Part shown: piece after piece, positions 4,481 to 64,000 of the stretch
Position numbering within the stretch: position 1 is the stretch's first letter
How the letters are laid out: every line of letters begins with the position of its first letter
Source: an uncultured Gammaproteobacteria bacterium
Lineage (GTDB): Bacteria; Patescibacteriota; Patescibacteriia; Patescibacteriales; UBA12465
NCBI GenBank assembly: GCA_964408775.1
Contig: CAYPAP010000001.1
Location: 225,839 to 289,838, forward strand
Reading direction: 5' to 3'
Length of the DNA: 64,000 nucleotides
The notes under the pieces: model-generated
What the model was told of the DNA's origin: nothing
Databases searched by the model: none
The model's input: only the letters and a program-made list of their open reading frames with translations
Program-made: the position numbers and the translations under genes

Positions 4481-5245
4481 ATGAAGATTATCTCCTGGAA
4501 TGTTAATGGAATAAGAGCCGTCCTGAAGAAAGGGTTTTTGGATTTTATCGAAAAAGAACAGCCTGATATTCTGGCTCTTCAAGAAATAAAAATATCATTA
4601 GCTAAGAAAGACTTAGAAAAATTTGATTTTGCTGGATATACCGAATTTTGGAATTCAGCCGACAGACCTGGCTATAGCGGAACATTAATATTATATAAGG
4701 AGGGTCTAAAAGTTTTGAACGAAAAAAATGGACTGGATATAAAAAAATTTGATATTGAAGGACGAGTTCAAACCATAGAACTAAAAAATTTTTACTTCGT
4801 AAACACTTACTTTCCTAACTCTAATCACGAATTAAGTCGCTTAGGCTATAAATTGGAATTTAACCAAGAATTAGAAAAATATTTAAAAAAATTAGAAAAA
4901 AATAAGCCTGTAATTTTGACTGGAGACCTAAACGTTGCTCACCAAGAAATAGATTTGGCTCGACCCAAAGAAAATATTGGAAATCCCGGCTTTACTTATG
5001 AAGAAAGAAACTGGATGACTGGATTTTTAAACAATGGTTTCATTGATACTTTTAGATATTTAAATCCTCAGAAAATAAAATACTCCTGGTGGAGTTTTCG
5101 TTCGGCGGCTAGAGTTAGAAATATTGGCTGGAGAATTGATTATTTTTGTATTTCTAAAAAATTAATTAAAAAGGTAAAGAGAGCCGATATTTTAGACCAG
5201 GTTACTGGCTCAGATCACGCCCCAATAGTCTTAGAGATTAACTAA
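4481..5245 (+). CDS. xth: exodeoxyribonuclease III (AP endonuclease)
   Basis: MKIISWNVNGIRA, LALQEIK, GDLNVAH and SDHAPI motifs of the ExoIII/EEP family. Confidence 0.9.
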   Translation: MKIISWNVNGIRAVLKKGFLDFIEKEQPDILALQEIKISLAKKDLEKFDFAGYTEFWNSADRPGYSGTLILYKEGLKVLNEKNGLDIKKFDIEGRVQTIELKNFYFVNTYFPNSNHELSRLGYKLEFNQELEKYLKKLEKNKPVILTGDLNVAHQEIDLARPKENIGNPGFTYEERNWMTGFLNNGFIDTFRYLNPQKIKYSWWSFRSAARVRNIGWRIDYFCISKKLIKKVKRADILDQVTGSDHAPIVLEIN

Positions 5246-5333
5246 GATCCCCTTCCTGCATTAGTTCTATCAAGTCATTAACAGGAACAACAACAAAAAT
5301 AACTTTAAAAAAATTATAAATAAAATAAAAGAT

Positions 5334-6446
5334 ATGAAAAATAAATCACAAATATTGGAGGGTTCTCGGGCTATTGCTCTAACTGTTAAAAATATTGAGC
5401 CAGCTGTTATTTCAGCTTACCCTATTACCCCACAAACACATATCGTGGAAGACCTAGCCAAATTTAAAGCTGATGGCCAGGCTAAATATGAATATGTTCG
5501 ATCCGAGAGTGAATTTGCAGCCGCTTCTATTGTTTTAGGGGCTTCGGCTAAGGGCGTGCGAGCCTATAGTGCTACCAGCTCTCAGGGATTATTATTAATG
5601 ACCGAGGTTTTATACAATATTTCTGGCATGCGTCTACCAGTAGTAATGACTCTGGCTAATAGGGCTGTTTCTGCTCCCATAAATATTTGGAATGATCACA
5701 GTGATGCCATGGCCGTACGTGACGCTGGATGGATAATGTTTTTTGCTGAAAATAATCAAGAAGCTGTTTGGCAACATTTATTGGCTTTTAAGATTGCCGA
5801 AAAAATGGCGCTACCGGCCATGGTTAATGTTGATGGCTTTATATTGACTCATTGTTATGAGCCGGTTTACGTTCCCGACAAAAAAACTATTAAAAAATTT
5901 CTGCCTACCTACAAGCCAACTAAGGGAACATTTTTAGACTCTAAAAATCCTTTTACCATGGGAGCCTTTATGACACCGGAGCATTATCAAGAAACCAGAA
6001 AAAAATTATCAGCTGATTTTGTGACCACTATTTCGGAAATCAAAAAAGAATACCAACTATTACAGAAGACTATGGGTATTAAAAAGGAAAAAAATACTAC
6101 TGATAATGGTCTATTAGAATATACTGGATCTAAAAATTCCAAAAAAATAATAATTGCTATGGGGTCGGTTATTGGAACTATAAAATCAGCCCTAGCTAGA
6201 GAAAAAAACATTGGAATTTTGAAAATAAAGTCATACCGTCCTTTTCCAGAAAAGGAAATTTATGATATAATTAAAAATGCTAGAGAAATTACAGTAGTAG
6301 AAAAAGCTATTAGCCCTGGAAATCATAGTCCATTATTTATAGACGTAAAAGCAATAGCTTCTGACAAACAAAAAGTTACTAGCTTTGTTAGCGGACTGGG
6401 AGGAAGAGACATTACCGAGGAAGAAATAAGAAAAATAATGAAATAA
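5334..6446 (+). CDS. porA: pyruvate:ferredoxin oxidoreductase alpha subunit
   Basis: G..AIA.....E..VISAYPITPQT..VE and SESEFAAAS..LGAS..G.RAY.ATSSQG match the POR alpha pattern. Confidence 0.85.
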   Translation: MKNKSQILEGSRAIALTVKNIEPAVISAYPITPQTHIVEDLAKFKADGQAKYEYVRSESEFAAASIVLGASAKGVRAYSATSSQGLLLMTEVLYNISGMRLPVVMTLANRAVSAPINIWNDHSDAMAVRDAGWIMFFAENNQEAVWQHLLAFKIAEKMALPAMVNVDGFILTHCYEPVYVPDKKTIKKFLPTYKPTKGTFLDSKNPFTMGAFMTPEHYQETRKKLSADFVTTISEIKKEYQLLQKTMGIKKEKNTTDNGLLEYTGSKNSKKIIIAMGSVIGTIKSALAREKNIGILKIKSYRPFPEKEIYDIIKNAREITVVEKAISPGNHSPLFIDVKAIASDKQKVTSFVSGLGGRDITEEEIRKIMK

Positions 6447-8158: not shown

Positions 8159-9571
8159 ATGTTTAAAAAAAATAATAAAAAAATATTTTTAAAAATACCG
8201 GTACTTATTTTTATTTTTTTACTCTCTCTTTTAGTTCTTCCTGGTGCTATAAGCGCTGGACCGATAGGTGAAGAGTGCACTACGTTCGAAGATTGCCCAC
8301 CCAATAATATGTGCATATCCACAAAGACGGGAGGAGATAGAAAATGCTATCCAAAAATAGGTGGTGGTTGCAACAACAATACTGATTGTTCTTATATAGA
8401 AAAAAATTCAGGAATACCGGGAGCTTTTTGCGACTCTACTAAAGCAATTTCAAATTACTCTGGCAGCTGTTTCAGCAACAAGGAAGCCCCTAAGACAACT
8501 ACCGACAGTGGATGTTCCTGGAGAATAGAGAAGCCAGTTCCTGGGGCAACCGGAACCTTCCAAGGAGGTTGCTATAGTATTGAAACTGAGTCCAATTGGG
8601 AAAAATGTAGTTCCATTTCTCAACCAGAAAAAAAATCAGGAGAAAAACTGCTTTGTTGTTGCGGAGAAAGTGGAGAAAATATAAATATTAAAAATAAAAC
8701 ACCCGATCTAAATCCCCTAGGAAATTTACAAATAAAAATACCTGGTCTAGACGAGATTGCTGAAAAACATCCCATTAAATGTGAGGGTGAAGGTGAAAGC
8801 CAAACTTGCAAAATTCCCTGGATAGCAATATATATACACGCTATTTATAATTACTTTTTAGCAATCGCTGGAATTTTGGCTGCCATAGCTTTAATGGTGG
8901 GAGGGGTTATTTGGCTGGTTTCTGCTGGAAATGCTAGCCGAGTTTCAGAGGCTAAAAGCTGGATAACAGGAAGTATTACTGGTTTAGTTATATTATTAAC
9001 CTCCTATGTTTTACTGTACCAAATAAATCCTGAATTAGTGGGAATGAGATATGTAAAACTAGCGGTTATTGACCCAATGGGATACTATGACACTAGTGTT
9101 GACGAAACCAACGAAAATCCCTATATAGATGCCTGCTTAGAAGCAAAAAAAGACAACCTAGGACCATGTAAAGCACTAGGAGAAACAAAGCCAAGTTATT
9201 TAGTTTATAACGCAAACTACCAAAAATATATACACCCCGAAACGTTAGATAAGTTCACCAAGGCTATGGAGTGTGTTAGAGGTAAAAATAATGGTGATAA
9301 TTTATTCTCTATTGTGTCAGCCTGGAGATCTCCAGCCAAACAAATAGAAATGAAGGAATATTGGATAGCCCAAGGAAAACCAGATAATGCTGCGCCCCCC
9401 TGTTGCTCTAATCATAGTTCAGGAAGAGCAATAGATATTTATCGCATCTCTGGAGATAGCATGGTTTGGGATTATAATGAAACAAGCGGTTTAAAAGAAT
9501 GTATGAATAATCAGGGACTATATGCAAACATCAGTGGTGAACCTTGGCATTGGTCTCCTACTGGGAAATAA
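8159..9571 (+). CDS. Cys-rich secreted protein: pilin-like two-TM module fused to a VanY/M15-type (LAS) peptidoglycan peptidase domain
   Basis: Signal peptide and a Cys-rich N-terminal domain. Module IYIHAIYNYFLAIAGILAAIALMVGGVIWLVSAGNASRVSEAKSWITGSITGLVILLTSYVLLYQINPELV. The C-terminus has SNHSSGRAIDI and EPWHW, the H-x-D and H zinc ligands of M15/LAS peptidases. Confidence 0.65.
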   Translation: MFKKNNKKIFLKIPVLIFIFLLSLLVLPGAISAGPIGEECTTFEDCPPNNMCISTKTGGDRKCYPKIGGGCNNNTDCSYIEKNSGIPGAFCDSTKAISNYSGSCFSNKEAPKTTTDSGCSWRIEKPVPGATGTFQGGCYSIETESNWEKCSSISQPEKKSGEKLLCCCGESGENINIKNKTPDLNPLGNLQIKIPGLDEIAEKHPIKCEGEGESQTCKIPWIAIYIHAIYNYFLAIAGILAAIALMVGGVIWLVSAGNASRVSEAKSWITGSITGLVILLTSYVLLYQINPELVGMRYVKLAVIDPMGYYDTSVDETNENPYIDACLEAKKDNLGPCKALGETKPSYLVYNANYQKYIHPETLDKFTKAMECVRGKNNGDNLFSIVSAWRSPAKQIEMKEYWIAQGKPDNAAPPCCSNHSSGRAIDIYRISGDSMVWDYNETSGLKECMNNQGLYANISGEPWHWSPTGK

Positions 9572-9980
9572 GAGAATTTTTGTCCATAGCGTCATTAGCC
9601 AGCCTATCCGCCTCCTTATTATTCTCCCGATAAACATGAGTAAAAGTTATTTTAGAAAAACTTAAAGATAAATTATAAACTTCCAAAAACAAGGGCGCCA
9701 AGTCCTTGTTTTTTACTTTATATTCACGGTTTAATTGTTTAACCACCAACTCGCTATCTAAAAAAACTTCGAGTTCCTGAGCCTGTAACTCTTTGGCTTT
9801 TTTTAAAGCTTCTATTAGGGCAGTATACTCCGCCTGATTATTAGTCTTTACTCCTAAAAATTTAGATATTTCAGCTACCTTTTCTTTTTTATCATTATAC
9901 AAAACCGCTCCAATTCCCGCTGGCCCTGGATTTCCCCGAGCTCCGCCGTCGGTAAAGATTATTAGCTTTTGTTTGTTCAT
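9558..9980 (-). CDS. rnhA: ribonuclease HI
   Basis: IFTDGGARGNPGPAGIG...NNQAEYTALIEAL. The start is taken at the ATG at 9980 (MNKQKL), which abuts the recJ stop. The track start at 10001 would overlap recJ. Confidence 0.85.
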   Translation of the reverse strand: MNKQKLIIFTDGGARGNPGPAGIGAVLYNDKKEKVAEISKFLGVKTNNQAEYTALIEALKKAKELQAQELEVFLDSELVVKQLNREYKVKNKDLAPLFLEVYNLSLSFSKITFTHVYRENNKEADRLANDAMDKNSLISQ

Positions 9981-24210: not shown

Positions 24211-24270
24211 TCTCATCTACCCCTATAAAATAATGATGTAAGTCGGTCTCTCACAAAAAAGAGACATCTG

Positions 24271-24341
24271 CTCGGGGACAGGGATTCGAACCCCGATAGC
24301 CAGGACCAAAACCTGGAGTCCTACCATTAGACGATCCCCGA
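24271..24341 (-). tRNA. tRNA-Gln (anticodon UUG)
   Basis: Hand-folded cloverleaf: TCGGGGA/TCCCCGA acceptor (U1-A72), D arm GTCT-AATGGTA-GGAC, anticodon arm CCAGG-TTTTGGT-CCTGG, T arm CGGGG-TTCGAAT-CCCTG, discriminator G. No CCA is encoded. Confidence 0.85.
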
Positions 24342-45936: not shown

Positions 45937-46013
45937 GGGCCCTTAGCTCAGTTGGCTAGAGCACCTGCTTTGCAAGCAGGGGGTCAAGGGTTCGAGTCCC
46001 TTAGGGTCCACCA
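45937..46013 (+). tRNA. tRNA-Ala (anticodon UGC), CCA encoded
   Basis: Hand-folded: acceptor GGGCCCT/AGGGTCC with G3-U70, D arm GCTC-AGTTGGCTA-GAGC, anticodon arm CCTGC-TTTGCAA-GCAGG, T arm AAGGG-TTCGAGT-CCCTT, then ACCA. Confidence 0.9.
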
Positions 46014-47520
46014 TAGATGACTTCTCACTTAGAGAAGTCATTTTTGTATCTAAAATTAGCGCGGTTCTTTGGGTTCGTAATTTATTTCCATCAAATAGAA
46101 TTCCTTCGGGAAATAGGAACCATTGCAAATCCTGTCTTTGTTTGATTTTTAACGTTTCAATTTCTTTAGATAAATTCTGCATAAAGTTAAGACTGCAATC
46201 TAAAACATCCTGAATATTCTCAGTTCCCTCATAATCTTGTATTTTTATCATTAAACCAGAAATCTCATTCTTTATTTTAGATAATTGCTCTCTTGCTAAA
46301 TCATCGTCAATAATATCTTTTAAATTTTTATTGATAATTAACTCCTGTCTTAATTTAAGCTCTGAAATTTTCTTTTCTGTCAGCCTTTTTAATTGTTTAT
46401 TGGACTGATTGCGATGTTCCCAATTTACAACCAGACTTTCTTTGAGTAATTCAATAAAATCTTTTTTAAATTCAAAGTCTTTAAGATAAACCTTAAACTT
46501 GTCTTCTAGTACATCCCTCTTTGTATTATAACCATTAAGCCCTCTAAAGCGGTAATATGGCAATCTTTGTCTACCATTACCTTTAGACCAACTACCGTCC
46601 AATTTGTGGCCCTTGTCGCTTCTTATAAGGCCCTTTAATGGAAAGTCTGGGTTATTTGTATTGTATCCTGCTTTAGTTTTACCATTTTTACATAAAACAA
46701 ACTGAACTTTATCAAAAAGCTCTTCACTAATGATTGGCTCAAAAGAGCCTTTTACCTCCCCCAAATCAAAACCATTTATATCTATAATTCCTTTGTATAC
46801 CTTATTTCTTATAATTCTATGAAAATACTGTTTACTTATTCTTTTATTCGAACCGAGCATTGCTCCTTCTGCAGTTATAATTTTACGAACTTCTTCTGGT
46901 AAATAAAGACCTGTAGCTAGTAATTCATAAATACGTTTTACGAAAGGAGATTTTTCTTTATCAATAATTATATTTTTTTCACCATTTAAAACACCATTCT
47001 TGTATCCGACTGGAGCTATAAAAACATATCTCCCCGCTCTAACACCATCAATCATCCCCCCTCTACATCTCTCAGCTCTAACATCATTATCAAGTTGAGC
47101 TACATTAGCTAACATATTTTCAACAAAACGGCCAACTGAATTGTTTTCAAACCTTTCCGATGTTGAAACTATTTTTATGCCCAAACTATTAAAAAATACC
47201 CTGAGCTGAGAATAGTCATCTGTATTTCTAGACAACCTGTCTATCTTGTAAATAATCAAAGTATCTATGCTTTTACGGTTAAGCGTACAGTATTTCATCA
47301 TTTTCTGTAATTCTGGTCTTAGAGCGGTTTTTGCGCTTTCACCTTCTTCAACAAAAATACTAGCTATCTCATAGTCATTTTTGTTAGCATAGTCTAGACA
47401 AACCCTTTCTTGGGTATTTAAGCTATTACCCTCATCGACCTGCTCCTTAGTGGAAACTCGGCAATAAATAACAGCTCTACTAGTCTTTTTTAATTCTTTT
47501 TTTATCATAAAATAGTGCAA
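45943..47520 (-). CDS. large serine recombinase (integrase)
   Basis: The resolvase catalytic domain shows AVIYCRVSTKEQ (Ser nucleophile) and IYKIDRLSRN. A recombinase domain and a C-terminal coiled coil follow. The last ~23 codons are the antisense of tRNA-Ala. Confidence 0.85.
   Translation of the reverse strand: MHYFMIKKELKKTSRAVIYCRVSTKEQVDEGNSLNTQERVCLDYANKNDYEIASIFVEEGESAKTALRPELQKMMKYCTLNRKSIDTLIIYKIDRLSRNTDDYSQLRVFFNSLGIKIVSTSERFENNSVGRFVENMLANVAQLDNDVRAERCRGGMIDGVRAGRYVFIAPVGYKNGVLNGEKNIIIDKEKSPFVKRIYELLATGLYLPEEVRKIITAEGAMLGSNKRISKQYFHRIIRNKVYKGIIDINGFDLGEVKGSFEPIISEELFDKVQFVLCKNGKTKAGYNTNNPDFPLKGLIRSDKGHKLDGSWSKGNGRQRLPYYRFRGLNGYNTKRDVLEDKFKVYLKDFEFKKDFIELLKESLVVNWEHRNQSNKQLKRLTEKKISELKLRQELIINKNLKDIIDDDLAREQLSKIKNEISGLMIKIQDYEGTENIQDVLDCSLNFMQNLSKEIETLKIKQRQDLQWFLFPEGILFDGNKLRTQRTALILDTKMTSLSEKSSMVDPKGLEPLTPCLQSRCSSQLS
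45994..46011 (+). repeat. attL core (3' end of tRNA-Ala)
   Basis: GAGTCCCTTAGGGTCCAC, identical to 54210-54227. Confidence 0.8.
46017..46045 (+). terminator. rho-independent terminator after tRNA-Ala (element-borne)
   Basis: ATGACTTCTC-ACTTA-GAGAAGTCAT (perfect 10-bp stem) followed by TTTT. It lies inside the 3' end of the recombinase ORF on the other strand. Confidence 0.6.
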
Positions 47521-48352
47521 ATTTTTTTTCTTTACTTGTGAATTTTATAATCCAATCATTAATGTCATCCGTATTTTTCTTTTTAAGAATATCGCAATCA
47601 ATCAAATAAGTAGTTAAAAGTAATATAAATAATATATTTCTAACAATCCAGAAACCTTCATTACCAAAAGAATATTTATTGAGAATATTGCCGTGCGAAT
47701 ATTCCGAAAAACTACCATAAATTAGATAAAATTTATCAGCAACATCAATTTCTTGATTAAAACCAACTGGTTTAAACTTATCTAAATAAGTACGATTTTC
47801 TATAATCTGTTTAACTTTTGGGAAAAGATACCCTCTCACTTTTTTCTGTGAAAAGGTATCGTAATCAGGAATAGAGTATCCCCTGTCATCAAGATAGGGT
47901 TTGTAGTTTAAATATTGTTTTTCAAATTCTTGTCGAGCTAGTCGCTTCTTAAGATAATAAAGTCTTTCATAAACACAATTAAGCATTTGCTCATCTAAAC
48001 TATGATTGGCTAAGTATAATAACTTTACATATATATCAAACAGCGTTCTGACGCTTGGAAGATAAAATTTCAAATCTTCTTTTTTTTCTGTCTTAACTTT
48101 CCTTAATAGAAAATCAGCTACTTGATAAAAAAAATCTAAACTGTTCTTTTTCGTAATTAACAACTCAGCCCACATTAATTCATTAGCCAAATCTTTTTCT
48201 TTAATATTATTCCCTATGAGGTCTATATCATCCATTTGTTTTTTTATTATTACCAAAGCTTCCGAAATTAATTCAAATTGTTCAGATAATACATCTCCTT
48301 CTTCTGGGTGAGAAATATTCTTCTTTAAGTTTTTTTTAAAATGATTAAACAT
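47480..48352 (-). CDS. hypothetical protein (island cargo)
   Basis: 290-aa ORF that overlaps the recombinase start by about 30-40 nt. No family recognised. Confidence 0.5.
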   Translation of the reverse strand: MFNHFKKNLKKNISHPEEGDVLSEQFELISEALVIIKKQMDDIDLIGNNIKEKDLANELMWAELLITKKNSLDFFYQVADFLLRKVKTEKKEDLKFYLPSVRTLFDIYVKLLYLANHSLDEQMLNCVYERLYYLKKRLARQEFEKQYLNYKPYLDDRGYSIPDYDTFSQKKVRGYLFPKVKQIIENRTYLDKFKPVGFNQEIDVADKFYLIYGSFSEYSHGNILNKYSFGNEGFWIVRNILFILLLTTYLIDCDILKKKNTDDINDWIIKFTSKEKKFALFYDKKRIKKD

Positions 48353-48494
48353 TTTTATTAGCTAAATAAATATCGATTAAAAAGTTAGACAGATAATTAA
48401 GCTCAGCCACTAAATTATCCTCTTCATTTTCGTCAATGTTTAACTTTTTAAATTTATTTTTTAATGACTTTTTTAGTATCTCATTATCCAACAT
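48345..48494 (-). CDS. candidate 49-aa ORF translationally coupled to the 290-aa gene
   Basis: ATG at 48494 gives MLDNEILKKSLKNKFKKLNIDENEEDNLVAELNYLSNFLIDIYLANKNV. Its stop overlaps the downstream ATG (AAATGTTTAA). Below the track cutoff. Confidence 0.25.
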   Translation of the reverse strand: MLDNEILKKSLKNKFKKLNIDENEEDNLVAELNYLSNFLIDIYLANKNV

Positions 48495-48604
48495 ATAGAC
48501 CAAAGATAAAATTATCTTTTAGCCCAAGTACTCCTTGATACCAAAAAAATTGTTATTAAGTAAAACTAATTATCTGCAATTTTTTCTCGCTCAATAATAA
48601 GTTT

Positions 48605-49429
48605 TTAAATTTTAAAAATTTCCTCAACTTTTATGTTAACAATATTTCCGTCTCTCTTAACTATATTAATATCAGCAAACTTTTTTTCTTTTATCATTTT
48701 CAATAATTCTTTTTCGTCAACAGCTTTTATTTTCTCCCCCTTAACCAAATACTCCTCATCTTTATTATTTTTAATAGTAATTGATTTATAACCTTTATCA
48801 CGAATAAAATTTAGAATGCTCTCCTCTTTTTTAGTCGCATCAGCCCTTTTTGTCATAAAATATAATTCATCCTTATAATCAATACCTTTTCTTCCTATTT
48901 TATCTAAAATTTCAAATACAATTTCATTTAAATTAATATTAATGTGAGATTTAACCCTTTGATGGAAAATAACATAGTTTGGAAGATTGTAAAAAAAGAA
49001 ACCACATTTATTCTTAAGCACTAAAACTATTTTTTTACCTCTCAGGGCCGATAATAAATTTTCCTCTGTACGTTGAGTTCGTCCTTCCGAAAAGAAAATT
49101 GTATTTAAATCCTTTAGCTGTTTATTAGCAACCCCATAAAACCTTAACTCTTTTATTAACGATAAATAAACAAGTTCTTTTATACTAAATTTTCTCCAAT
49201 TATTTTTTTCTTTTCTATTTTCTTCTAACAAGCCGTCGGCATCAAGAAAATTAATTTGCCTATACGTTAAAAATGTATCTGCAACTCTAAACATCCTTTT
49301 ATTTAATAAAGCCCTTGCCTGTTTAACTTTTAGCGTACCCCTCTGGGACATAAAATTATCATCCAACTCTTGAACCCAGGGCAATATTTCTTTTTTAGTG
49401 ATATTTTTAGTCATAAAAAAATTATACAC
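48605..49429 (-). CDS. hypothetical protein with an N-terminal MerR-like HTH (tentative)
   Basis: FRVADTFLTYRQINFLDADGLL....WRKFSIKELVYLSLIKELRFYGV follows the MerR-type HTH and wing pattern. The C-terminal ~150 aa are unknown. Confidence 0.45.
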   Translation of the reverse strand: MYNFFMTKNITKKEILPWVQELDDNFMSQRGTLKVKQARALLNKRMFRVADTFLTYRQINFLDADGLLEENRKEKNNWRKFSIKELVYLSLIKELRFYGVANKQLKDLNTIFFSEGRTQRTEENLLSALRGKKIVLVLKNKCGFFFYNLPNYVIFHQRVKSHININLNEIVFEILDKIGRKGIDYKDELYFMTKRADATKKEESILNFIRDKGYKSITIKNNKDEEYLVKGEKIKAVDEKELLKMIKEKKFADINIVKRDGNIVNIKVEEIFKI

Positions 49430-49525
49430 ATATGTATAATTTAATTATAACATTAACCCAATAAAAGTCAAGTGACGAAATAGTATAAATTGAGTAAATT
49501 TAGCTAATTATTAATAAATAATAAT

Positions 49526-50626
49526 TTATAAATCATACTCTTTTATTAAATCATTTAGTTTAGTTTTATGTATCGTTTTTAATTCAGCATCTTTTTCAAC
49601 TAGCTCTATATATTCATTGAAGAATTCCTTAGGATTTGAGATTAAACGAAGATAATACTTTAATGTATATAGCAATCCATTAACAATTAACTGACATCCG
49701 TGATTTTCTTTAATTTCAAAAATTAACTCATCAATCGCCTCTCGGTCGCTTTCCTGCGTTCCAATATGTGAAAGAATATAATATCTCTCTGGATTGAACC
49801 TGGCAATTTTCTCATAAGCAATTCTAGCTATATTTATATCAATCATCTTATCCAGCTTTACCTCAACTGCTTCAAATATTCTATCGCCTTTAATTATTTC
49901 AATATCACCAGAGCTTTTTGAGGTTCTGTCTGATGCAGTATGGCTACCGAGAGGGGCAAGGGTACAATCTTTATATCTTCCAACTTCTTTAATTAGGGCC
50001 TTATAAATAGCATAAAAAGCTAAAACCGGAAGCTTTGACCCACCGTGAGTGCCATATTTATGCGTAAAATGTTGTTCTAAAATTACAGTTACCACTGAGA
50101 TTAAAACTTCATCACCGTTATCCATTTTTTTGATTTCAACGTGATTTTTCTTTTTAAATAAAATGGCACTATTTAATACCAATCTTAAAAGATTTTCTGT
50201 TAATACATTATTATTTTGAATTGCATCTACAATTCTTAAAAATGCCTCTTTCATTCCTGCGCCAGAAATCTCACCCTTATAGTCCATTGTATACGGGTAA
50301 GGCTGTTCTAAGCTTCTAGTAAGCCATCCACTTTCCGCCATAGACAACAGCCCTAATTCTTTTAGTGTTGGCGTAATGTACTTAGTGTCAACAGTTCTTG
50401 CAGAAAAACCATTTTTCATTTTACCTTGAAAGTATCGGATATCCTGTTTTGGTTCTAAGAGTTTATGTACCATCAGTGTTACAAGAACGGTATAAACGCC
50501 TTTATTTCTGTCCATATTGTCTATAATTTTTTGCAAAAAAATCATAGTTTTTTTTGGTATATTATCTATATCAGATATATCGAATGATTTTTTGTAGACT
50601 TCTAATAGCGTCTCTTTGTGGTTCAT
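49526..50626 (-). CDS. candidate type II restriction endonuclease (PD-(D/E)xK)
   Basis: It lies 4 nt downstream of the C5-MTase gene. SGDIEIIKGDRIFEAVEVKLD fits a D...E-x-K nuclease core. No named family recognised. Confidence 0.55.
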   Translation of the reverse strand: MNHKETLLEVYKKSFDISDIDNIPKKTMIFLQKIIDNMDRNKGVYTVLVTLMVHKLLEPKQDIRYFQGKMKNGFSARTVDTKYITPTLKELGLLSMAESGWLTRSLEQPYPYTMDYKGEISGAGMKEAFLRIVDAIQNNNVLTENLLRLVLNSAILFKKKNHVEIKKMDNGDEVLISVVTVILEQHFTHKYGTHGGSKLPVLAFYAIYKALIKEVGRYKDCTLAPLGSHTASDRTSKSSGDIEIIKGDRIFEAVEVKLDKMIDINIARIAYEKIARFNPERYYILSHIGTQESDREAIDELIFEIKENHGCQLIVNGLLYTLKYYLRLISNPKEFFNEYIELVEKDAELKTIHKTKLNDLIKEYDL

Positions 50627-50630
50627 ATAA

Positions 50631-51638
50631 TTATAATAGTTGTGAGATTATTTGCTCTCCAACTTTTTTTATCATTGGAATTGCTACAGCATTGCCAATT
50701 TGGTTATAACAAGAGCCATTTTTACTTATTTTTTTAAAATTATCTGGAAAACCTTGTAATCTGTAGCATTCTGTCAATGTTAATTTTCTAACTTTTTTAC
50801 CGTCATAAATCCAAAATCTGCCAGATGTTTCTTGTGACGGTATTGTCGGATGCGTTCCATTAATATAATATATTCTGTTTGGTTGCTTGTGAACCCTTGA
50901 TAAATGCTCAGTATTGGGTCTAGCTCCATTAATTCTTATAGATTTATTTCTATAACCACAAAAAATTAAGCCAGAAATTTGTTTTTTCCATTTATCTTTA
51001 GGAATTATTGTATATTCGCTTGGTTTTAAATATTCAAAATCAACCCCTGTCTGCATAATGTCTTTAATAGTCTTATTCTCAATTTTTTCTATTTTTGAAA
51101 AATCAAACTTTTTTTTCTTATTTCCTACAATAATAACCCTTTCTCTGTTCTGTGATAAACCAAAATCTTTTGCATTTAATATATGCCACTCTGTTTTATA
51201 TCCTAATTCCTCAAGATGACGTATGATAGTTTTTAAAGTTTTACCGCTGTTATGGTCTTTAAGATGTTTTACATTTTCAAGGAATACAACGCTTGGGCTT
51301 TTTGCTTTTATTATTTCAAGTATATTAAAAAATAAAGTTCCCCTTGTATCTTCAAACCCTTTCATTCTTCCTGATATGCTAAATGGCTGACAAGGAAAAC
51401 CTCCACACAATATATCGTGTTTTGGTATACTACTTGGCTTAATTTTAGTTATATCTCCTTTTGGATACTCCCCGAAGTTTGCTTCATAAGTTTTCGCACA
51501 CTCTACGTCGATTTCAGATGAAAATACACATTTACCGTTAAGCTCTTGGAGTGCAATATGAAATCCCCCTATGCCAGCGAAGAGGTCTATAAAAGTAAAT
51601 TTTTTATTTTTATCATTTTTCTTTTTTATCGGTGTCAT
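50631..51638 (-). CDS. DNA (cytosine-5)-methyltransferase
   Basis: Motifs I FIDLFAGIGGF, IV GGFPCQPFS, VI FLENVKHL, VIII QNRERV and X GNAVAIPM, in canonical order. Confidence 0.9.
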   Translation of the reverse strand: MTPIKKKNDKNKKFTFIDLFAGIGGFHIALQELNGKCVFSSEIDVECAKTYEANFGEYPKGDITKIKPSSIPKHDILCGGFPCQPFSISGRMKGFEDTRGTLFFNILEIIKAKSPSVVFLENVKHLKDHNSGKTLKTIIRHLEELGYKTEWHILNAKDFGLSQNRERVIIVGNKKKKFDFSKIEKIENKTIKDIMQTGVDFEYLKPSEYTIIPKDKWKKQISGLIFCGYRNKSIRINGARPNTEHLSRVHKQPNRIYYINGTHPTIPSQETSGRFWIYDGKKVRKLTLTECYRLQGFPDNFKKISKNGSCYNQIGNAVAIPMIKKVGEQIISQLL

Positions 51639-51641
51639 ATT

Positions 51642-51824
51642 TCATTTTGTACTTATCTTTTTTAGAAAGGATAAAAAATCGGAATTATCAATTCGAAACT
51701 CTTTACCAAATTTATAAGCCTTTAATTTTCCAGATTTAATATATCTATAAATGGTCATTATGTTAAAGTCGAGCATTATAGCTAGTTCCTGGGCGGTATA
51801 AAACTGTTTTTTATTTCCACTCAT
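51642..51824 (-). CDS. excisionase-type (MerR-superfamily) HTH DNA-binding protein
   Basis: YTAQELAIMLDFNIMTIYRYIKSGKLKAYKFGKEFRI matches the 'excisionase family DNA-binding domain' pattern. It could be an RDF or an R-M controller. Confidence 0.7.
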   Translation of the reverse strand: MSGNKKQFYTAQELAIMLDFNIMTIYRYIKSGKLKAYKFGKEFRIDNSDFLSFLKKISTK

Positions 51825-51826
51825 AT

Positions 51827-52021
51827 TTATTTTTTGATTATCTTAAAGTTTTTTTGTAGATATAATAAATCTTTTATTATTCTTTTAAAACATCCATTAT
51901 TAAGCTCTCTGGGCTTTCCATCAAAATATTCAGGTTTTTCATTTATTAAAGTCAAAATTGTAGCTAATGTTCCAAAATAATCATTTGATTTAATATGAAA
52001 GTCTGTAGATTTCTTAGACAT
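51827..52021 (-). CDS. hypothetical 64-aa protein
   Basis: Packed with 2-nt gaps between the HNH and HTH genes. No family recognised. Confidence 0.35.
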   Translation of the reverse strand: MSKKSTDFHIKSNDYFGTLATILTLINEKPEYFDGKPRELNNGCFKRIIKDLLYLQKNFKIIKK

Positions 52022-52023
52022 AA

Positions 52024-52941
52024 TTATTTCTTATTCATTCTTTTTTGGAACTCTTCTGTTGTTCCAAAATGAATGACCTTATGACAATTTGCACACACGC
52101 AAATCATATCATTAGGATTATCAATCTTGGTTTTAGAAAGTTCACTTTTATGATGAGCCTCTGCGTAAGGTAATCCATTTTTCTGTATAAAAGGATTTTC
52201 TCCACAAATCTCACATACATATTTTACTTTCTCTTTAACCAAACGAGCAAATTTAGGATTTCTCACCAACATTCTTGCCGTTTTTATTTTTTCTTTTACA
52301 GGAACATCTTTTATTTCTTGTGAGATACGAGCTATCTCTGCGGTCGCCTCTTCTACATTATTCGGCTCTTTAATTTTTTTATAAAAAGAAACTTCTTCTT
52401 CTTCAGTTGGCTCTATACTATCTTCATTAAAGTTGGAACCCTCGTTTTCTTCAATATACTTTTTCATAGCATTGGCGTTTTCACCTACAAGAAGTAAGGC
52501 TCCTTGCACTATGTAGTTTGAAGCGTAATTTGTTAAATCATTTTTTATTAATATCTCAGGAGTAAATTTTAATTGAACAGATTTGCCATCTTTTATAAAA
52601 AACATATACTCCCAAGTCCTTTCCTTATCATCAGTCCCCCAAAGGCTATTAGCAATATCTTTATTATGTATTTTTGTATAAACAGTTGCTAAATAGAAAA
52701 ATCCTTTGTTTGCATAAAATAAAACAAGGTCACCCTCTTTAAGTTTTTCCCATTCTTTTACTTTTGTGTTTGGAACAAAGCCCCAGGCTTTAACAATGCT
52801 TGTTTTAAGTTCTTTAAGTTTATTAAACTCTTTTTCATCAATCTTTCCATCCAAATAACTTAATGGCAAGCCATTTACTACGGTATCCTCGAAGTGTTCC
52901 ATCGGTCTCTTACCCGAGCAAGATTGTAATAATATATTCAT
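52024..52941 (-). CDS. HNH endonuclease with an uncharacterised N-terminal (possibly PUA-like/EVE-like) domain
   Basis: The C-terminus CEICGENPF...YAEAHHKSELSK...CVCANCHKVIHFG is an HNH/McrA-like zinc-finger nuclease. The N-terminal ~150 aa (KAWGFVPNTKVKEWEKLKEGDLVLFYANKGFFYLATV) is a beta-rich candidate reader domain; this is an inference. Confidence 0.75.
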   Translation of the reverse strand: MNILLQSCSGKRPMEHFEDTVVNGLPLSYLDGKIDEKEFNKLKELKTSIVKAWGFVPNTKVKEWEKLKEGDLVLFYANKGFFYLATVYTKIHNKDIANSLWGTDDKERTWEYMFFIKDGKSVQLKFTPEILIKNDLTNYASNYIVQGALLLVGENANAMKKYIEENEGSNFNEDSIEPTEEEEVSFYKKIKEPNNVEEATAEIARISQEIKDVPVKEKIKTARMLVRNPKFARLVKEKVKYVCEICGENPFIQKNGLPYAEAHHKSELSKTKIDNPNDMICVCANCHKVIHFGTTEEFQKRMNKK

Positions 52942-53291
52942 AGTTTATTATATTTTATAGCGTTACCCTTTGACTTTTCTACTGGATATTTTTTCTTCAC
53001 CTTGTCTAATTTGTCAAAAATTATTTTTTGAACATCTAAATCTAGCGTATTTGTCATTTGGATGCAATAAGTTAAAACATCAGCTAATTCATCTGATATT
53101 TTTTGTCTAAACTCTTCGTCATTTTTGATTTCTTCTTCTATCTGCTGTTTGTTTTTCCATAAAAACAACTCCAAAAGTTCACTCGCCTCTATCGATATTG
53201 CTTCGGCTAAATTTTTTGGGTCGTGAAACTTAGACCAATCTCTTTCTTCCCTAAATTTCAATAATTCCTTTTTAATATATTCTAGGCTCAT
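52938..53291 (-). CDS. MazG-like / DCTPP1-like nucleoside-triphosphate pyrophosphohydrolase
   Basis: FREERDWSKFHDPKNLAEAISIEASELLELFLWK....ELADVLTYCIQ....LD......K..KKYP matches the all-alpha NTP-PPase (MazG-like) pattern. Its stop overlaps the HNH start by 4 nt. Confidence 0.8.
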   Translation of the reverse strand: MSLEYIKKELLKFREERDWSKFHDPKNLAEAISIEASELLELFLWKNKQQIEEEIKNDEEFRQKISDELADVLTYCIQMTNTLDLDVQKIIFDKLDKVKKKYPVEKSKGNAIKYNKL

Positions 53292-53344
53292 ATTTAAAAA
53301 TATTTAATCTAAATTTTTATTTTATTAATCATTTATTTACTAAT

Positions 53345-53373
53345 ATTATACTTTACTTTTCTTTACAAGTAAA
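53345..53373 (-). promoter_or_regulatory. candidate promoter of the MazG-to-REase operon, overlapped by an 8-bp inverted repeat
   Basis: The minus strand reads TTTACT-N17-TATAAT. The inverted repeat CTTTACTT (53351-58) / AAGTAAAG (53367-74) spans the spacer and the -35 element. Confidence 0.3.
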
Positions 53374-53393
53374 GCATATTTTAAAAAGCATTT

Positions 53394-53894
53394 TTACGAA
53401 ACGAACCCATTTTTAGATTGAATAGTCATCAACATATTAAAGGCTTTATATATACTTTTTTCAATAGAGACTTCATACCTTAACAACTTATCTATCTGAT
53501 TACTATCAATGATGTTTATATTATTTTGATGCTTTACCATTTCTTCAGGATTATCATACCCCAAACCCCTATTATCAAAATGGTTTGGCTCTTTTTTTAA
53601 GCTTATTAAGCTTTTTTCTATATTTATGATGCGTTTTAATCTCCAGTAGTTTGAAACAATTCTATCGACTAATAGTTTTTCTAGAAATCCTTGCGGAGAT
53701 AAAGCTTCATAAATTTCATCCTGTAAATTTTCAAAACACTCCTTATCCTCATCATCAAGTATAATATTCTTGGATAAAATTCCGTGTTTTATTGCGTTCA
53801 TCTTGCTAACCTCCTTACCCTCTTCTGTTTTTACTCCTCCTAATTGAGCATTTTTACGATTAGCTTCTAGTTGTTGCTGAGTTATGTTTTCCAT
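53394..53894 (-). CDS. hypothetical protein (island cargo)
   Basis: 166 aa. N-terminal ANRKNAQLGGVKTEEGKEVSKMNAIKHGILSK is a widespread uncharacterised motif (from memory). Confidence 0.5.
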   Translation of the reverse strand: MENITQQQLEANRKNAQLGGVKTEEGKEVSKMNAIKHGILSKNIILDDEDKECFENLQDEIYEALSPQGFLEKLLVDRIVSNYWRLKRIINIEKSLISLKKEPNHFDNRGLGYDNPEEMVKHQNNINIIDSNQIDKLLRYEVSIEKSIYKAFNMLMTIQSKNGFVS

Positions 53895-54027
53895 ATATTT
53901 ATGGTTGTAATAAAGTAAAGTATTAATTTAAAGTTAATATAAGCATTAGAAATTTTAAGTACTATTTGCATTAGTAATAATATATAGCTGTTTTAATTCG
54001 TTAATAAACTGGTTCCAAATTGGTAAA

Positions 54028-54045
54028 CTTAGGTCCACAAAAAAG
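54028..54045 (+). repeat. degenerate att-like repeat (tRNA-Ala 3' fragment + AAAAAAG)
   Basis: CTTAGGTCCACAAAAAAG compared with CTTAGGGTCCACAAAAAAG at 54216-54234 (one G missing). It is followed by a hairpin, AAAAAAGCTGC-GTTA-GCAGTTTTTTTT. Confidence 0.6.
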
Positions 54046-54209
54046 CTGCGTTAGCAGTTTTTTTTTGGAGCCTAAGCAAGCCAACTGCTTGGCTTGCGTA
54101 GGGACGAGAAAGCCGGAGTCATGTGCACGAAGTGCACGGGCGAGGCCGGGTCGGGGCGCTTAGCGAGTGATTGAGCGTAGCGAAAGAACGAGGCTTAGCG
54201 ACCGTGACA
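54046..54209. other. GC-rich hairpin-dense segment between the two right-hand att-like repeats (candidate ncRNA or element relic)
   Basis: Contains GCAAGCCAA-CTGC-TTGGCTTGC (54076-54097), GTGCAC-GAA-GTGCAC (54123-54137), and three spaced copies of GC(T/G)TAGCGA (starting at 54158, 54175 and 54193). No ORF is present. Confidence 0.4.
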
Positions 54210-54227
54210 GAGTCCCTTAGGGTCCAC
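54210..54227 (+). repeat. attR core
   Basis: GAGTCCCTTAGGGTCCAC, identical to 45994-46011. It is followed by AAAAAAG plus an imperfect hairpin AAGACTTCC-GACG-GGAGCTCTT and a T-run, probably the native tRNA terminator. Confidence 0.8.
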
Positions 54228-54333
54228 AAAAAAGAAAGACTTCCGACGGGAGCTCTTTTTTATTTTTAAAAGTTTGCTATAATAATTCTAGAAAGAATAA
54301 TAAAAATTAACAAATAAAACTTAAACCAATTCT

Positions 54334-55269
54334 ATGAAAATAATAGCCATAATAAGCCTGCTTATTTTATTTTTAGCTCTAAGCAAGTTTGCTGACTTAA
54401 TTGTTTTAAACATAAGAAAGATAGGAGAGAAACTAGGTATAAAAATATTTGTGCTGGGTATGATACTCGGAATAATGACTGGCCTACCAGAAATGGCCAT
54501 TGGAATAAACTCCATAGTCAATGACATAGCTATTATATCTTTTGGAAATTTAATGGGCGGAATTATTGTTTTATTTGGATTGATTTTATCTATTAGTATA
54601 ATATTAAATCGAAAAATACACACTGAAAAAAAATCATGGCCCTTTTTAATTATTCTATCATTCTTGTTTCTCCCTTTAATCCTAAGCTTAAAAGGAGAAT
54701 TAAATTTTTTTGATGGTCTAATATTAATATCTGGTTACATCGCACTTATTTATTACTTATATAAAAAAAATAATAAAAACACCTCTCCTGAAATAAAAAT
54801 AGTAAATAAAAAAGATATTAACCGCCACATTTTTTTTATAATAATAGGAATGATCGGCTTGGTAGTGTCTTCAGAATTAATAGTTAAAACTACTCTTTTT
54901 ATATTAAAAGACTATAACATATCTGCCTTTATTATAGGCTTAATCTTTTATTCAGTAGGGACAAATTTACCAGAATTAATTATTGCCGTTAGGTCATTTA
55001 AAAGAAAGATCGGGGAACTATCTTTTAGCAACCTAATTGGCTCAGCTATGGGCAATGTCTTGATGTTAGGAATTTTAAGTTTTATTAAAAACATAGAAAT
55101 AAAAATAGGACCTTCTTATTTGTTTTTAGTTATTTTTGTTTTAATATTCTTTTCTTTTTTATACTTTTTCTACCGCAGCGACAGACTTCTAAGCCGCCGA
55201 GAAGGGTTTGCTATTCTTTTTATGTATCTAATATTTATCTTCGGGCAAATTTTTATACAAATAACCTAA
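54334..55269 (+). CDS. Ca2+/Na+ antiporter (CaCA family, YrbG-like)
   Basis: Ten or so TM helices with the two alpha-repeat motifs GLPEMAIGI..... and GTNLPELIIAV. Confidence 0.8.
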   Translation: MKIIAIISLLILFLALSKFADLIVLNIRKIGEKLGIKIFVLGMILGIMTGLPEMAIGINSIVNDIAIISFGNLMGGIIVLFGLILSISIILNRKIHTEKKSWPFLIILSFLFLPLILSLKGELNFFDGLILISGYIALIYYLYKKNNKNTSPEIKIVNKKDINRHIFFIIIGMIGLVVSSELIVKTTLFILKDYNISAFIIGLIFYSVGTNLPELIIAVRSFKRKIGELSFSNLIGSAMGNVLMLGILSFIKNIEIKIGPSYLFLVIFVLIFFSFLYFFYRSDRLLSRREGFAILFMYLIFIFGQIFIQIT

Positions 55270-55341
55270 TTGAATATTCTTTTAAAAAAACAGTCCCTGA
55301 GGGACTGTTTTTTAAATTTACAATATGCTTTTTAGTAAAAT

Positions 55342-56085
55342 CTAGAATCTTTCTCCTGGATCCTCACAAGAATTTTCAGAACATTCTTTTAATTTAGCCT
55401 CCATTTCTGCGCCAAGAGCATCTGAAAAGCCAACCCAATATTTATCCCCGATAAAAGTCATAGGAACACCTTGAACTGAGGTTCCATAAGAAGCTGCTAG
55501 GCTTTCCAAAGAATCTCTATTTTCTGGGTTATTCCAAGTTTCAAAATCTTTTATTTCAATATTGGGGTATTTACTAAGCCAAGAATCCATAGCCTCTTTC
55601 TGTCTTTCACAGTAAGGACAGCCATCTCCCCAGAAAAAATAAACTAAAACTTTTTCATCCCCTAAAGATCCTTCTAGCACTTGCGAATTATCATCGTTAT
55701 TAATAGCATCAGCGTCTTCAATAAATTCTTGCTCGCCTAAAGACTCGCCCTCACTATCATTTAAGGTCTCTTCTAACTCGCTTATATTATATGCCTGAGG
55801 AAATAAAACTTCACCATCGCTACTAATATAAGATTCTACTAATTCACCGTCCCCTAAGTCAATATAAAATTTATAAAGACCAGTTTGGGCATCCTTTTCA
55901 ATTTTCTGAATGCTTACCGGATAAGCTGGGTCCATGAAGTTAGTATTAATAAATTGCTCTGCTTTAACCTGAGCCTCTTCTGGCGTTAATTCTTTTTCTT
56001 TTTTCAGCCCACAGGCTGATAAAAAAACCAGAGAAAGAATTGCTACCAAGAAAATAGACTTCTTTAACATTCTTTTTTTAAACAT
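55342..56085 (-). CDS. thioredoxin-fold lipoprotein
   Basis: Signal peptide with lipobox (LVFLSAC), and a CPYC redox motif in the C-terminal thioredoxin-like domain. Confidence 0.65.
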   Translation of the reverse strand: MFKKRMLKKSIFLVAILSLVFLSACGLKKEKELTPEEAQVKAEQFINTNFMDPAYPVSIQKIEKDAQTGLYKFYIDLGDGELVESYISSDGEVLFPQAYNISELEETLNDSEGESLGEQEFIEDADAINNDDNSQVLEGSLGDEKVLVYFFWGDGCPYCERQKEAMDSWLSKYPNIEIKDFETWNNPENRDSLESLAASYGTSVQGVPMTFIGDKYWVGFSDALGAEMEAKLKECSENSCEDPGERF

Positions 56086-61827: not shown

Positions 61828-61835
61828 ACAGGATG

Positions 61836-61906
61836 TCGGAATGCCCGGAATCGAACCGGGGCTACATGCACCCCATGCACGCGTACTACCATTATACTAC
61901 ACTCCG
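61836..61906 (-). tRNA. tRNA-Pro (anticodon GGG)
   Basis: Hand-folded: acceptor CGGAGTG/CATTCCG (C1-G72, one G-U), D arm GTAT-AATGGTA-GTAC, anticodon arm CGTGC-ATGGGGT-GCATG, T arm CCCGG-TTCGATT-CCGGG, discriminator A. Confidence 0.85.
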
Positions 61907-63258: not shown

Positions 63259-63921
63259 TCAGTTTTGCGAAGCAAACGCCGAAACTGAACCAAAGTTAGC
63301 GCTGGCAAAGAACACATCGCACGCGTCGAACTCAAGCTCGCCATCGCTGGAGTAGAAGAGCGGAGCCTCCGAGAACACGCCATCAGCATCAGGAGCAAAT
63401 TCGTCACCTGCACAATCGACATCAAGTTCCTCCCAACAAACGTAACGATCGGGGTGAACCAATGACATACAGCCAAGAGCAAATGTTCCTAAGCCGAATT
63501 CGTTGCTTGCGAAGGTTTCCCTTGCTCTGCGAACGGATTTGCCACGGTGACGCATGCCGTGTTGTGCTGCGATAATCAGAATATCACCCCGTTGTTCGGC
63601 TTCCAGATGTTCCAGGAAGCCAACAGTACGAATATGCTGGCGCAATTTGCTCGGCACAATTTCACCGTTGTAGTAGTTTATAAAACTACGACTTTCGGCT
63701 AACTTCGTTTGTACCAGTTTTACTGCTTCGCAATACTGCTCAGCAGAATCGGTAATCTCAGGAAAATGTTTCTTTGCAACCGATGATACTTTTGGAATAG
63801 CGAACCATCCTTCAGCACCTTCAGGTAATGCGGGTAACACTTTGCTAAACTCCAATGCTTGTGTCGGATCAAGTCCGAACTTTTCGGCAATGAATTTTAC
63901 CTGTTCTTCGATCGGTTTCAT
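63259..63921 (-). CDS. hypothetical protein encoded in a sharply GC-rich segment
   Basis: Long ORF. The preferred start is the ATG at 63921 (MKPIEEQ), preceded by AAGGAA. Codon composition is unlike the rest of the window. No family recognised. Confidence 0.55.
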   Translation of the reverse strand: MKPIEEQVKFIAEKFGLDPTQALEFSKVLPALPEGAEGWFAIPKVSSVAKKHFPEITDSAEQYCEAVKLVQTKLAESRSFINYYNGEIVPSKLRQHIRTVGFLEHLEAEQRGDILIIAAQHGMRHRGKSVRRARETFASNEFGLGTFALGCMSLVHPDRYVCWEELDVDCAGDEFAPDADGVFSEAPLFYSSDGELEFDACDVFFASANFGSVSAFASQN

Positions 63922-64000
63922 CTTGTATTCCTTTGGGTAGGCATAGCTTGAGCTTACCACCTCATTGGCATACTGGTTTGAAGTCGAATGCTTTTGAATC

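Follow-up and report, generated by a model that had tools for sequence, protein, structure and literature searches.

The window analysed here is a 64,000-nt stretch of the forward strand of contig CAYPAP010000001.1 (assembly GCA_964408775.1, positions 225,839-289,838; source samples ERZ27252304 and SRR10872584). It comes from an uncultured bacterium whose genome is small, with 33% GC, and whose closest relatives carry a Patescibacteria label. A tRNA-Ala(UGC) gene lies on the plus strand at 45937-46013 (ARAGORN call; Rfam RF00005, 71 bits). Overlapping it on the minus strand is int (45943-47520), the gene of a large serine recombinase of 525 aa from TTG, or 521 aa from an ATG at 47508, identified by Pfam, homologues and fold match. 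A run of further minus-strand genes follows, and housekeeping genes flank the locus (class III ribonucleotide reductase, NrdR, YebC, a LysM/M23 peptidase, Der, an LCP protein and GlmS).

With a probability of about 0.85, positions 46012-54038 form an 8,027-bp integrative element inserted in the 3' end of the tRNA-Ala(UGC) gene, with a 6-bp core, an attP lying within int, and an integrase tail that is exchanged upon integration. An earlier reading made from the letters of the window (the sequence-only reading) had placed an island with a large serine recombinase at its left end at this tRNA, and an empty site in a sister species and a circular close relative now bear this out. It had also taken an exact 18-bp direct repeat as the boundaries. 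That part falls: the true right end lies 189 bp inward of the end of the right 18-bp copy.

Element boundaries and attachment sites

The junctions of seven two-ended elements (integrases 45-100% identical), a free circle and two empty sites were compared. Across this comparison, GTCCAC is the sole sequence that attL and attR have in common. Within the window it lies at 46006-46011 (attL), where it takes in the final four bases of the acceptor 3' strand together with the discriminator A and the C after it, and again at 54033-54038 (attR), which circle alignment and junction comparison identify as the true right end. The right core sits in a shorter second copy of the tRNA end (54028-54045, CTTAG-GTCCAC-AAAAAAG), which is followed by its own hairpin and T-run. 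The last two bases of the annotated tRNA gene (CA, 46012-46013) are element-derived; the tRNA-Ala of the sister genome L036 is identical through 46011.

From these junctions, attP was reconstructed as GGTAAACTTAG-GTCCAC-CATAGATGAC and attB as CCCTTAGG-GTCCAC-AAAAAAGCTGCG. As is typical of serine integrases, attP and attB share only a short identity, the 6-bp core, and attL and attR are hybrids of P/P' and B/B' arms. The tRNA contributes its T arm and acceptor strand as the B arm; the P arm is ggttccaaattggtaaacttag. The P' arm is a hairpin. Five of the nine integrated loci have it in the form GACTTCTC..GAGAAGTC, and some hairpin is kept at this place in all relatives. The B' arm is, throughout the family, an A-rich stretch followed by the host terminator. 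Because attP is quasi-symmetric around the central CC of the core, this dinucleotide is the likely point of crossover.

In the window, the B' arm (54039-54066, plus strand) consists of AAAAAAG, a hairpin and T9, the hairpin standing between the A-run and the T-run; a homologous hairpin occurs in the related locus L031. By its sequence and position, this arm is the predicted terminator that followed tRNA-Ala before the island was inserted. A metagenome scan for the tRNA end followed by AAAAAAG matched solely in a more distant organism, and so did not yield a same-species empty site; the match shows an A-run plus terminator after the tRNA to be a native layout. At the left end, a terminator scan found the P' hairpin and T-run at 46015-46043 on the plus strand, and the minus strand of the same segment encodes the integrase linker KMTSLSEKSS. 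This hairpin plausibly ends the re-formed tRNA as a putative intrinsic-terminator-like site, in line with the sequence-only reading, which had noted hairpins with T-runs beside both 18-bp copies and proposed that the element supplies the left one. Its further proposal, that the element supplies the CCA end, describes something incidental. CCA is element-supplied at 5 of 10 related junctions, and it is encoded in 0/14 Patescibacteria-type tRNA-Ala genes sharing the same 3' end (L001-L016), so an element-supplied CCA end was rejected as a design feature. The tRNA-Gln and tRNA-Pro genes of the window (24270-24341 and 61835-61906) likewise lack an encoded CCA.

The sister genome L036 provides an empty site. 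Its 901-kb contig lacks the insert and matches the window collinearly on both flanks, with a nucleotide identity of about 81%. Homology ends exactly at 46011, the end of the tRNA core, and picks up again at 54298; 381 bp separate the identical tRNA-Ala from the Na/Ca-exchanger gene, with an unrelated 80-aa open reading frame (ORF) inside. Judged from this alignment, L036 is an empty site at the sister-species level. In three other related loci (L012, L029 and L030) the upstream synteny matches the window and the genes 3' of the tRNA are wholly different, so the tRNA-Ala site is an insertion hot spot. L012 (JAQICS010000062.1) has a two-gene module at 4542-6068, directly 3' of an identical tRNA-Ala, which by eye resembles a toxin-antitoxin pair of the AbiEi/AbiEii kind; no integrase gene is visible there.

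A circular relative provides the other state. Its integrase, P0006, is 71% identical to that of the window. The contigs that encode it measure 7,895 and 7,881 nt and overlap at their ends by 141 and 127 nt, so that both close to a circle of 7,754 bp. Gene order is circularly permuted across 24 contigs from many samples. The junction predicted for the window element, rc(46012..) + GTGGAC + rc(..54032), aligns with this circle, with 35-nt identity across the joint over TCTATGGTGGACCTAAGTTTACCAATTTGGAACCA. Joining 46012 to 54038, which would give an excised circle of 8,027 bp, yields a 530-aa integrase with the conserved C-terminal helix LSLPIWNQFINELKQLYIITNANST and the tail VDLSLPIWNQFINELKQLYIITNANST; the C-terminus of P0006 is VDLSLPIWNQYINELKQVYLITKSNLVEI.

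The integrase and its exchanged C-terminus

Pfam assigns int an N-terminal Resolvase domain (PF00239, 7.6e-31, residues 16-164), containing the serine-nucleophile motif YCRVSTKEQ, and a Recombinase domain (PF07508, 2.1e-10). R14, S16 and Q20 are invariant in an alignment of 50 homologues. The AlphaFold model of P0006 (pLDDT 86) comprises a catalytic domain, a long E helix (121-154) followed by the alpha/beta recombinase domain, a beta region (strands 299-327) and then a long helical hairpin (346-421). At the C-terminus, a low-confidence linker (490-498) leads to a final helix (501-519). Foldseek matched the model over its full length to the SPbeta, Bxb1, phiC31 and LI integrases, with SPbeta aligned over about 540 columns (E 1.8e-19). 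On the evidence of the model, the enzyme is a large serine recombinase despite missing zinc-binding cysteines.

The sequence-only reading had observed that the ORF tail of the recombinase is antisense to the tRNA, and this was confirmed: int stays open through the 46015-46043 hairpin and the 18-mer, its stop codon lies inside the antisense tRNA, and the last 20 aa of the chromosomal form, PKGLEPLTPCLQSRCSSQLS, are antisense-tRNA-encoded. The other 3' end of the gene lies orphaned at the far end of the element (53955-54038, minus strand; VDLSLPIWNQFINELKQLYIITNANST*). This piece was found by minus-strand translation from 54038, measures 84 nt and is reunited with int in the circle; the P arm of attP makes up its first ~30 nt. 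Insertion swaps the last 25 aa of the 530-aa enzyme for 20 unrelated residues, giving 525 aa. The crossover falls at the VD codons and precedes the final helix, which is encoded beyond attP, so the helix is part of the enzyme in the circular form only.

The exchange is a property of the family. Each integrated locus gave a single strong match to a profile hidden Markov model (HMM) of the native tail, located at the element's far end and on the int strand. The loci are the window (E 8.9e-14, its sole strong match), L029, L030, L031, L040, L041 and L044; L038 has a partial match at a contig end. More than 1,400 integrase homologues were found at E<=1e-20. Among the best 120 of these, about 93 end in antisense-tRNA peptides such as VDPTGLEPATPSLQMRCSTR, and about 20 end in the native tail VD..FWNQF.KE...L..ILK. 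The amphipathic pattern of the tail (W-x2-F/I-x2-E-x3-L-x2-IL) is retained in homologues with only 41-46% overall identity. In integrated copies, the orphan tail is open, has a similar end point and differs mainly at third codon positions; between the window and L031, the tails show six synonymous and no nonsynonymous codon differences. Since the detached tail stays open under mostly synonymous change, the sequences argue that the elements keep cycling through a circular state in which it is translated. The first ~30 nt of the piece probably double as an integrase binding site, and the survival of the amphipathic pattern in homologues that are 41-46% identical argues for a protein-level role also.

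All nine integrated relatives inspected adjoin tRNA-Ala(UGC), with int reading into the tRNA. L031 is an exception in extent, as its int abuts only a 24-nt tRNA fragment. Past this fragment, L031 11470-14798 holds genes of 124 aa and 439 aa, a DUF3800 gene and a LOOT RNA (RF03000, 13273-13378, 55 bits). From its sequence, L031 looks like a tandem stacking of several insertions at one tRNA-Ala. The context of another homologue, P0124, was uninformative, as its genome has different synteny.

When IMG/VR was scanned with the family alignment, viral contigs of 7-59 kb yielded integrases that are more distant, at 26-38% identity. Three are integrated, at tRNA-Arg(TCT), tRNA-Ala(GGC) and tRNA-His(GTG) genes (L049 11483-11559, L051 11474-11547 and L056 11471-11547), where the 3' end of int enters the antisense tRNA or stops just before it. 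Relatives of the same design occur on L048, L050, L053/L071, L055, L058, L069, L078 and L081, and the free viral-contig integrases carry a homologous tail, for example LVDLLTPSWNPTLAWLRHLYDTLPRAA. In 8 of 13 such free tails the ending is -AA, ssrA-like (LAA, RAA, AAA, PAA, GAA and others); integration into a tRNA would strip this ending. On these sequences, the design with attP inside int is older and wider than the Patescibacteria family.

In the mechanism proposed, the serine recombinase encoded at the left end would insert the element through the GTCCAC core. The circular form would encode the 530-aa enzyme with its conserved amphipathic helix; after integration, int would read out into the antisense tRNA, the unrelated residues would replace the helix, and the 84-nt tail-coding piece would be left at the far island end. 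The P' hairpin would serve as integrase linker on one strand and as terminator of the re-formed tRNA on the other. The exact 18-bp repeat would belong to a separate 189-bp unit already present between the tRNA and the next gene. This copy of the element may still be mobile today.

Gene content and the right-hand flank

Ten minus-strand ORFs of at least 60 aa lie between the 18-bp copies, together with one small ORF (48345-48503; 52 or 49 aa), as the sequence-only reading had counted; the small one is conserved in relatives. The backbone common across the elements consists of a protein of about 270 aa, a 52-57-aa and/or a 283-290-aa protein, and int, whereas the cargo varies. In the window, int is followed by a 290-aa backbone protein, weakly DUF5677-like (47480-48352, minus strand), which also occurs in L030 and L031. 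Next come the 52-aa protein beside int (48345-48503, minus strand), which is 56-57% identical to 57-aa ORFs of L029 and the circle and may be a candidate directionality factor, and a 274-aa protein with a MerR/GlnR-like winged helix at its N-terminus (48605-49429, minus strand), present in every element examined. A fold search with the 274-aa protein matched only this MerR-like domain and left the remainder unmatched.

The cargo follows, also on the minus strand. A 366-aa probable type II restriction endonuclease (49526-50626) has a SacI-like N-terminal domain according to a precomputed PF09566 assignment to the identical gene in L033; the Pfam, PADLOC and PDB searches run on the window protein gave no match. 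It is followed by a C5 cytosine DNA methyltransferase (50631-51638; Pfam 1.3e-95, PADLOC MTase_II, TIGR00675). Directly upstream of the methylase, family searches identified a 60-aa excisionase-family helix-turn-helix (HTH) protein (HTH_17, 51642-51824), a gene that is absent from the relatives' gene lists and stands outside the family backbone. Beyond a 64-aa ORF with no family match (51827-52021) lie a 305-aa protein with a C-terminal HNH nuclease, similar to type IV methyl-directed restriction enzymes (52024-52941; Pfam HNH, PADLOC mREase_IV 1.2e-11, phrog_14240), a MazG-like nucleotide pyrophosphohydrolase (52938-53291; Pfam 1.8e-16, phrog_3301) and a 166-aa ORF without matches in family searches (53394-53894). 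Apart from the methylase and the HNH nuclease, PADLOC recognised just a weak Mad1-like HTH. Judged by sequence similarity, the cargo is of a defence type. The cargo of relatives consists of other restriction-modification pairs, toxin-antitoxin genes or a peptidase. In L044 (GCA_964596525.1; int 45% identical) the serine integrase gene has a tyrosine integrase gene immediately upstream (8629-9768), and the element further encodes an AAA_15/21 ATPase and pairs a PD-(D/E)XK gene with a Dam-type methylase. The island genes include no virion genes (PHROGs search) and no conjugation genes, and a prophage reading was rejected on the PHROGs result.

The exact 18-bp repeat is real. The 18-mer GAGTCCCTTAGGGTCCAC occurs at 45994-46011 (plus strand), where it covers the 3' part of the T-loop, the T stem, the acceptor 3' strand, A73 and C74, and at 54210-54227 (plus strand), with none expected in shuffled sequence. 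The right copy is the 3' end of a structured element of 161 nt (54067-54227, 61% GC, fold z -4.8) that lies outside the island, and together with the next AAAAAAG it repeats the 25-bp end of the pre-island tRNA locus. A second terminator-like hairpin with a T-run, found by terminator scan on the plus strand, follows at 54235-54262, with its hairpin placed at 54240-54252, upstream of the Na/Ca-exchanger gene. The predicted order of the locus before the island is thus tRNA-Ala, AAAAAAG and terminator 1, the 161-nt segment ending in GAGTCCCTTAGGGTCCAC, then AAAAAAG and terminator 2; terminator 1 and the GC-rich segment make up a 189-bp unit between 25-bp direct repeats.

Homologues of the GC-rich segment occupy the same place in L031 (3908-4072, minus strand, 80% identity) and L029 (5151-5338, minus strand, 65%). 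The copies measure 161-188 nt at about 61% GC, and in each of the three AT-rich genomes they stand just 3' of the terminator of tRNA-Ala. Every copy pairs its 5' end with its tRNA-like 3' end, and the L031 stem holds a G3:U70-like pair; in L029 both stem strands differ in sequence yet still pair. Compensatory changes are seen at five internal pairs. L036, L027, L030, L040 and L041 lack the segment, and an nhmmer search of all fetched loci gave no copies outside the three genomes. Rfam E-value scans of the element from the three genomes returned no recurring family and ruled out tmRNA, RNase P, SRP and 6S RNA as identities, while a gathering-threshold scan of the whole window reported three tRNAs and nothing else. 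The element had no blastn match in phage and plasmid collections, and scans of viral contigs for the 18-bp core and a GC-element motif returned nothing. With three copies known, it is either a remnant or miniature of an earlier insertion at tRNA-Ala or a small structured-RNA gene derived from a partial tRNA duplication. The stacking in L031 indicates that further insertions at the same tRNA-Ala site do occur.

Two observations concern the window beyond the island. An independent assembly (L035, ERZ27252295 k141_290124) corresponds to window 54202-55843 and breaks 8 nt upstream of the right 18-bp copy, which could mean population heterogeneity or low coverage at the GC-rich element. At the far edge, an ORF at 63259-64000 lies in a 43% GC stretch between a methyltransferase gene and rpsF; it corresponds to a 325-aa gene in L033 and is absent from L036, which runs straight to rpsF, and may be another insertion.

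Alternative readings and known systems

It is very improbable that one 8.2-kb element extends from one copy of the exact 18-bp repeat to the other, which would put attR at 54210-54227. Such an element would account for a repeat that is not expected by chance. The whole of 46012-54297 is also missing in L036, which would allow the GC-rich unit and the island to have arrived together, and the unit stands at three of six attR flanks and at none of three empty tRNA-Ala sites. An 18-bp join (...CGTGACA-GAGTCCCTTAGGGTCCAC-CATAGATG, with an empty site reading tRNA then AAAAAAGAAAGACTTCC) would, however, make int end in ...GLCHGR*, without family homology. The circular relative carries the 54028-54038 sequence rather than that of the GC-rich unit, the elements of L030, L040 and L041 have the same attR without the unit, and the unit of L029 ends in sequence that is no copy of its tRNA. 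Known serine recombinase cores are short; the sequence-only reading had itself doubted 18 bp on this ground, with good reason given a real core of 6 bp. The layout also resembles an Islander-type island in part: an intact tRNA, which the element regenerates, stands at one end next to int, but the far end holds GTCCAC and loose similarity only, with the 18-bp fragment a further 172 bp away, and the recombinase is of the serine and not the tyrosine type.

Several points weigh against the reading as an integrative element with a 6-bp core. Neither a circular form nor an empty site of this exact element and species was recovered, the circle being that of a 71% relative and the empty site that of a sister species, and the island is identical among the independent assemblies recovered of this species. 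Of the domain models that the sequence-only reading had named for 45943-47520, those for the resolvase and recombinase domains matched, but the Zn_ribbon_recom HMM did not match int, and the 50-sequence alignment has no invariant cysteine in that region. No directionality factor was recognised among the element proteins, the 52-aa and 274-aa backbone proteins being candidates. The first ~30 nt of the tail piece are near-invariant as DNA, and tail conservation may partly reflect the integrase binding site. The tail swap could also be a neutral by-product of an attP packed into a gene. Some of these points would suit a fixed remnant, in which 54028-54038 records a past insertion and excision has been lost: the sequence does not vary across all recovered assemblies of the species, no free-form protein falls in the same 90% cluster (one member), and no directionality factor is recognised. 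This is nevertheless unlikely, as int is an uninterrupted ORF, its orphaned tail stays open with mostly synonymous change, close relatives occur as free circles in many samples, and the cargo is wholly different between related hosts at the same site. An integrative element with its attP in int remains the preferred reading.

Whether the swap itself matters is a separate question. It is possible, though short of probable, that circle-made and chromosome-made enzymes differ in activity, stability or direction, which would make the swap an integration-state switch. The conserved amphipathic helix, its placement after a flexible linker in the AF2 model of P0006 and the synonymous bias of the orphan tail favour this, as do the recurrence of the design in the distant viral-contig clade at tRNA-Arg, tRNA-His and tRNA-Ala(GGC), with its ssrA-like free tails, and the precedent of integration-dependent truncation in mycobacteriophage BPs (PMC4557955). 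The Patescibacteria tails, however, lack the -AA ending, the overlap of attP and gene may just save space in small elements, and tail conservation lies partly at the DNA level. Somewhat more doubtful is the broader proposal of a large clade of serine integrases with attP in int, acting at tRNA 3' ends and comprising more than 1,400 homologues in Patescibacteria besides the more distant ones on viral contigs, in which the free versus integrated C-terminus controls direction, activity or stability, without or alongside a directionality factor.

Serine integrases are valued for genome engineering because a separate factor sets their direction. If the proposal holds, an integration state that alters the C-terminus of the enzyme itself would offer a novel means of controlling direction or dosage and a bacterial parallel to the archaeal self-splitting tyrosine integrases. 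The family also shows that tRNA 3' ends, classic targets of tyrosine integrases, are used systematically by one serine-integrase clade. Small elements of this kind shuttle restriction-modification and toxin-antitoxin defence genes among the reduced genomes of Patescibacteria, where few mobile elements have been characterised. The short, defined att sites, the universal tRNA target and the compact backbone could seed genetic tools for this group.

The family is not described in the part of the full-text literature that was searched on Patescibacteria serine recombinases and on tRNA-Ala serine integrases. A large survey of large serine recombinases groups attB sites by the protein-coding genes they overlap, with no mention of tRNA. 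Among the literature searched, two precedents for a tRNA 3' end as the target of a serine recombinase were found: a minority of tycheposons (10.1101/2020.12.28.424599) and the Ralstonia filamentous phage phiRSM, whose serine recombinase uses a 13-nt att core from the 3' end of tRNA-Ser, in reverse orientation (PMC3816273). phiRSM differs in its small resolvase/invertase-type enzyme, its intergenic attP and its nature as a filamentous phage of Proteobacteria.

An attachment site inside a coding sequence has precedents among tyrosine integrases. The archaeal SSV-type "suicidal" integrases have their recombination site within the integrase gene, which integration splits (PMC8371274), and a 2021 review called self-disrupting recombinases exclusive to archaea (PMC8371274). 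The island shares the att site inside the int ORF and the alteration of the gene by integration without belonging to that archaeal tyrosine family, in which integration divides the gene into two large pieces and probably inactivates it; in the island 25 residues are exchanged and the ORF stays open. The mycobacteriophages BPs and Brujita also have attP in a coding sequence and a C-terminal segment that is replaced or removed (PMC4557955). There, however, integration alters the repressor, and the integrase belongs to the tyrosine type, whereas in the island the integrase itself is affected.

The sequence-only reading had pointed to SCCmec/Ccr elements, and the likeness holds at the family level, as both are large serine recombinases moving a small cargo island, with different targets and att sites. 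Membership in Ccr or XisF was rejected on NCBIfam cutoffs (CcrB 95 vs 900 bits; CcrC 56 vs 900). The enzyme resembles the phiC31, Bxb1, A118/LI and SPbeta integrases, with which int shares the resolvase and recombinase domains, a putative long coiled coil and the full-length fold, as well as a short attP/attB identity (6 bp here), simple site-specific integration and int at one end. Unlike those systems, the island targets a tRNA 3' end and not a protein-coding gene, its attP lies inside int, its zinc-ribbon cysteines are absent, and it spans about 8 kb without virion or conjugation genes and without a recognised directionality factor. The element is one of the large-serine-recombinase integrative elements, set apart by its tRNA target, its attP in int and an integrase C-terminus that varies with integration state.

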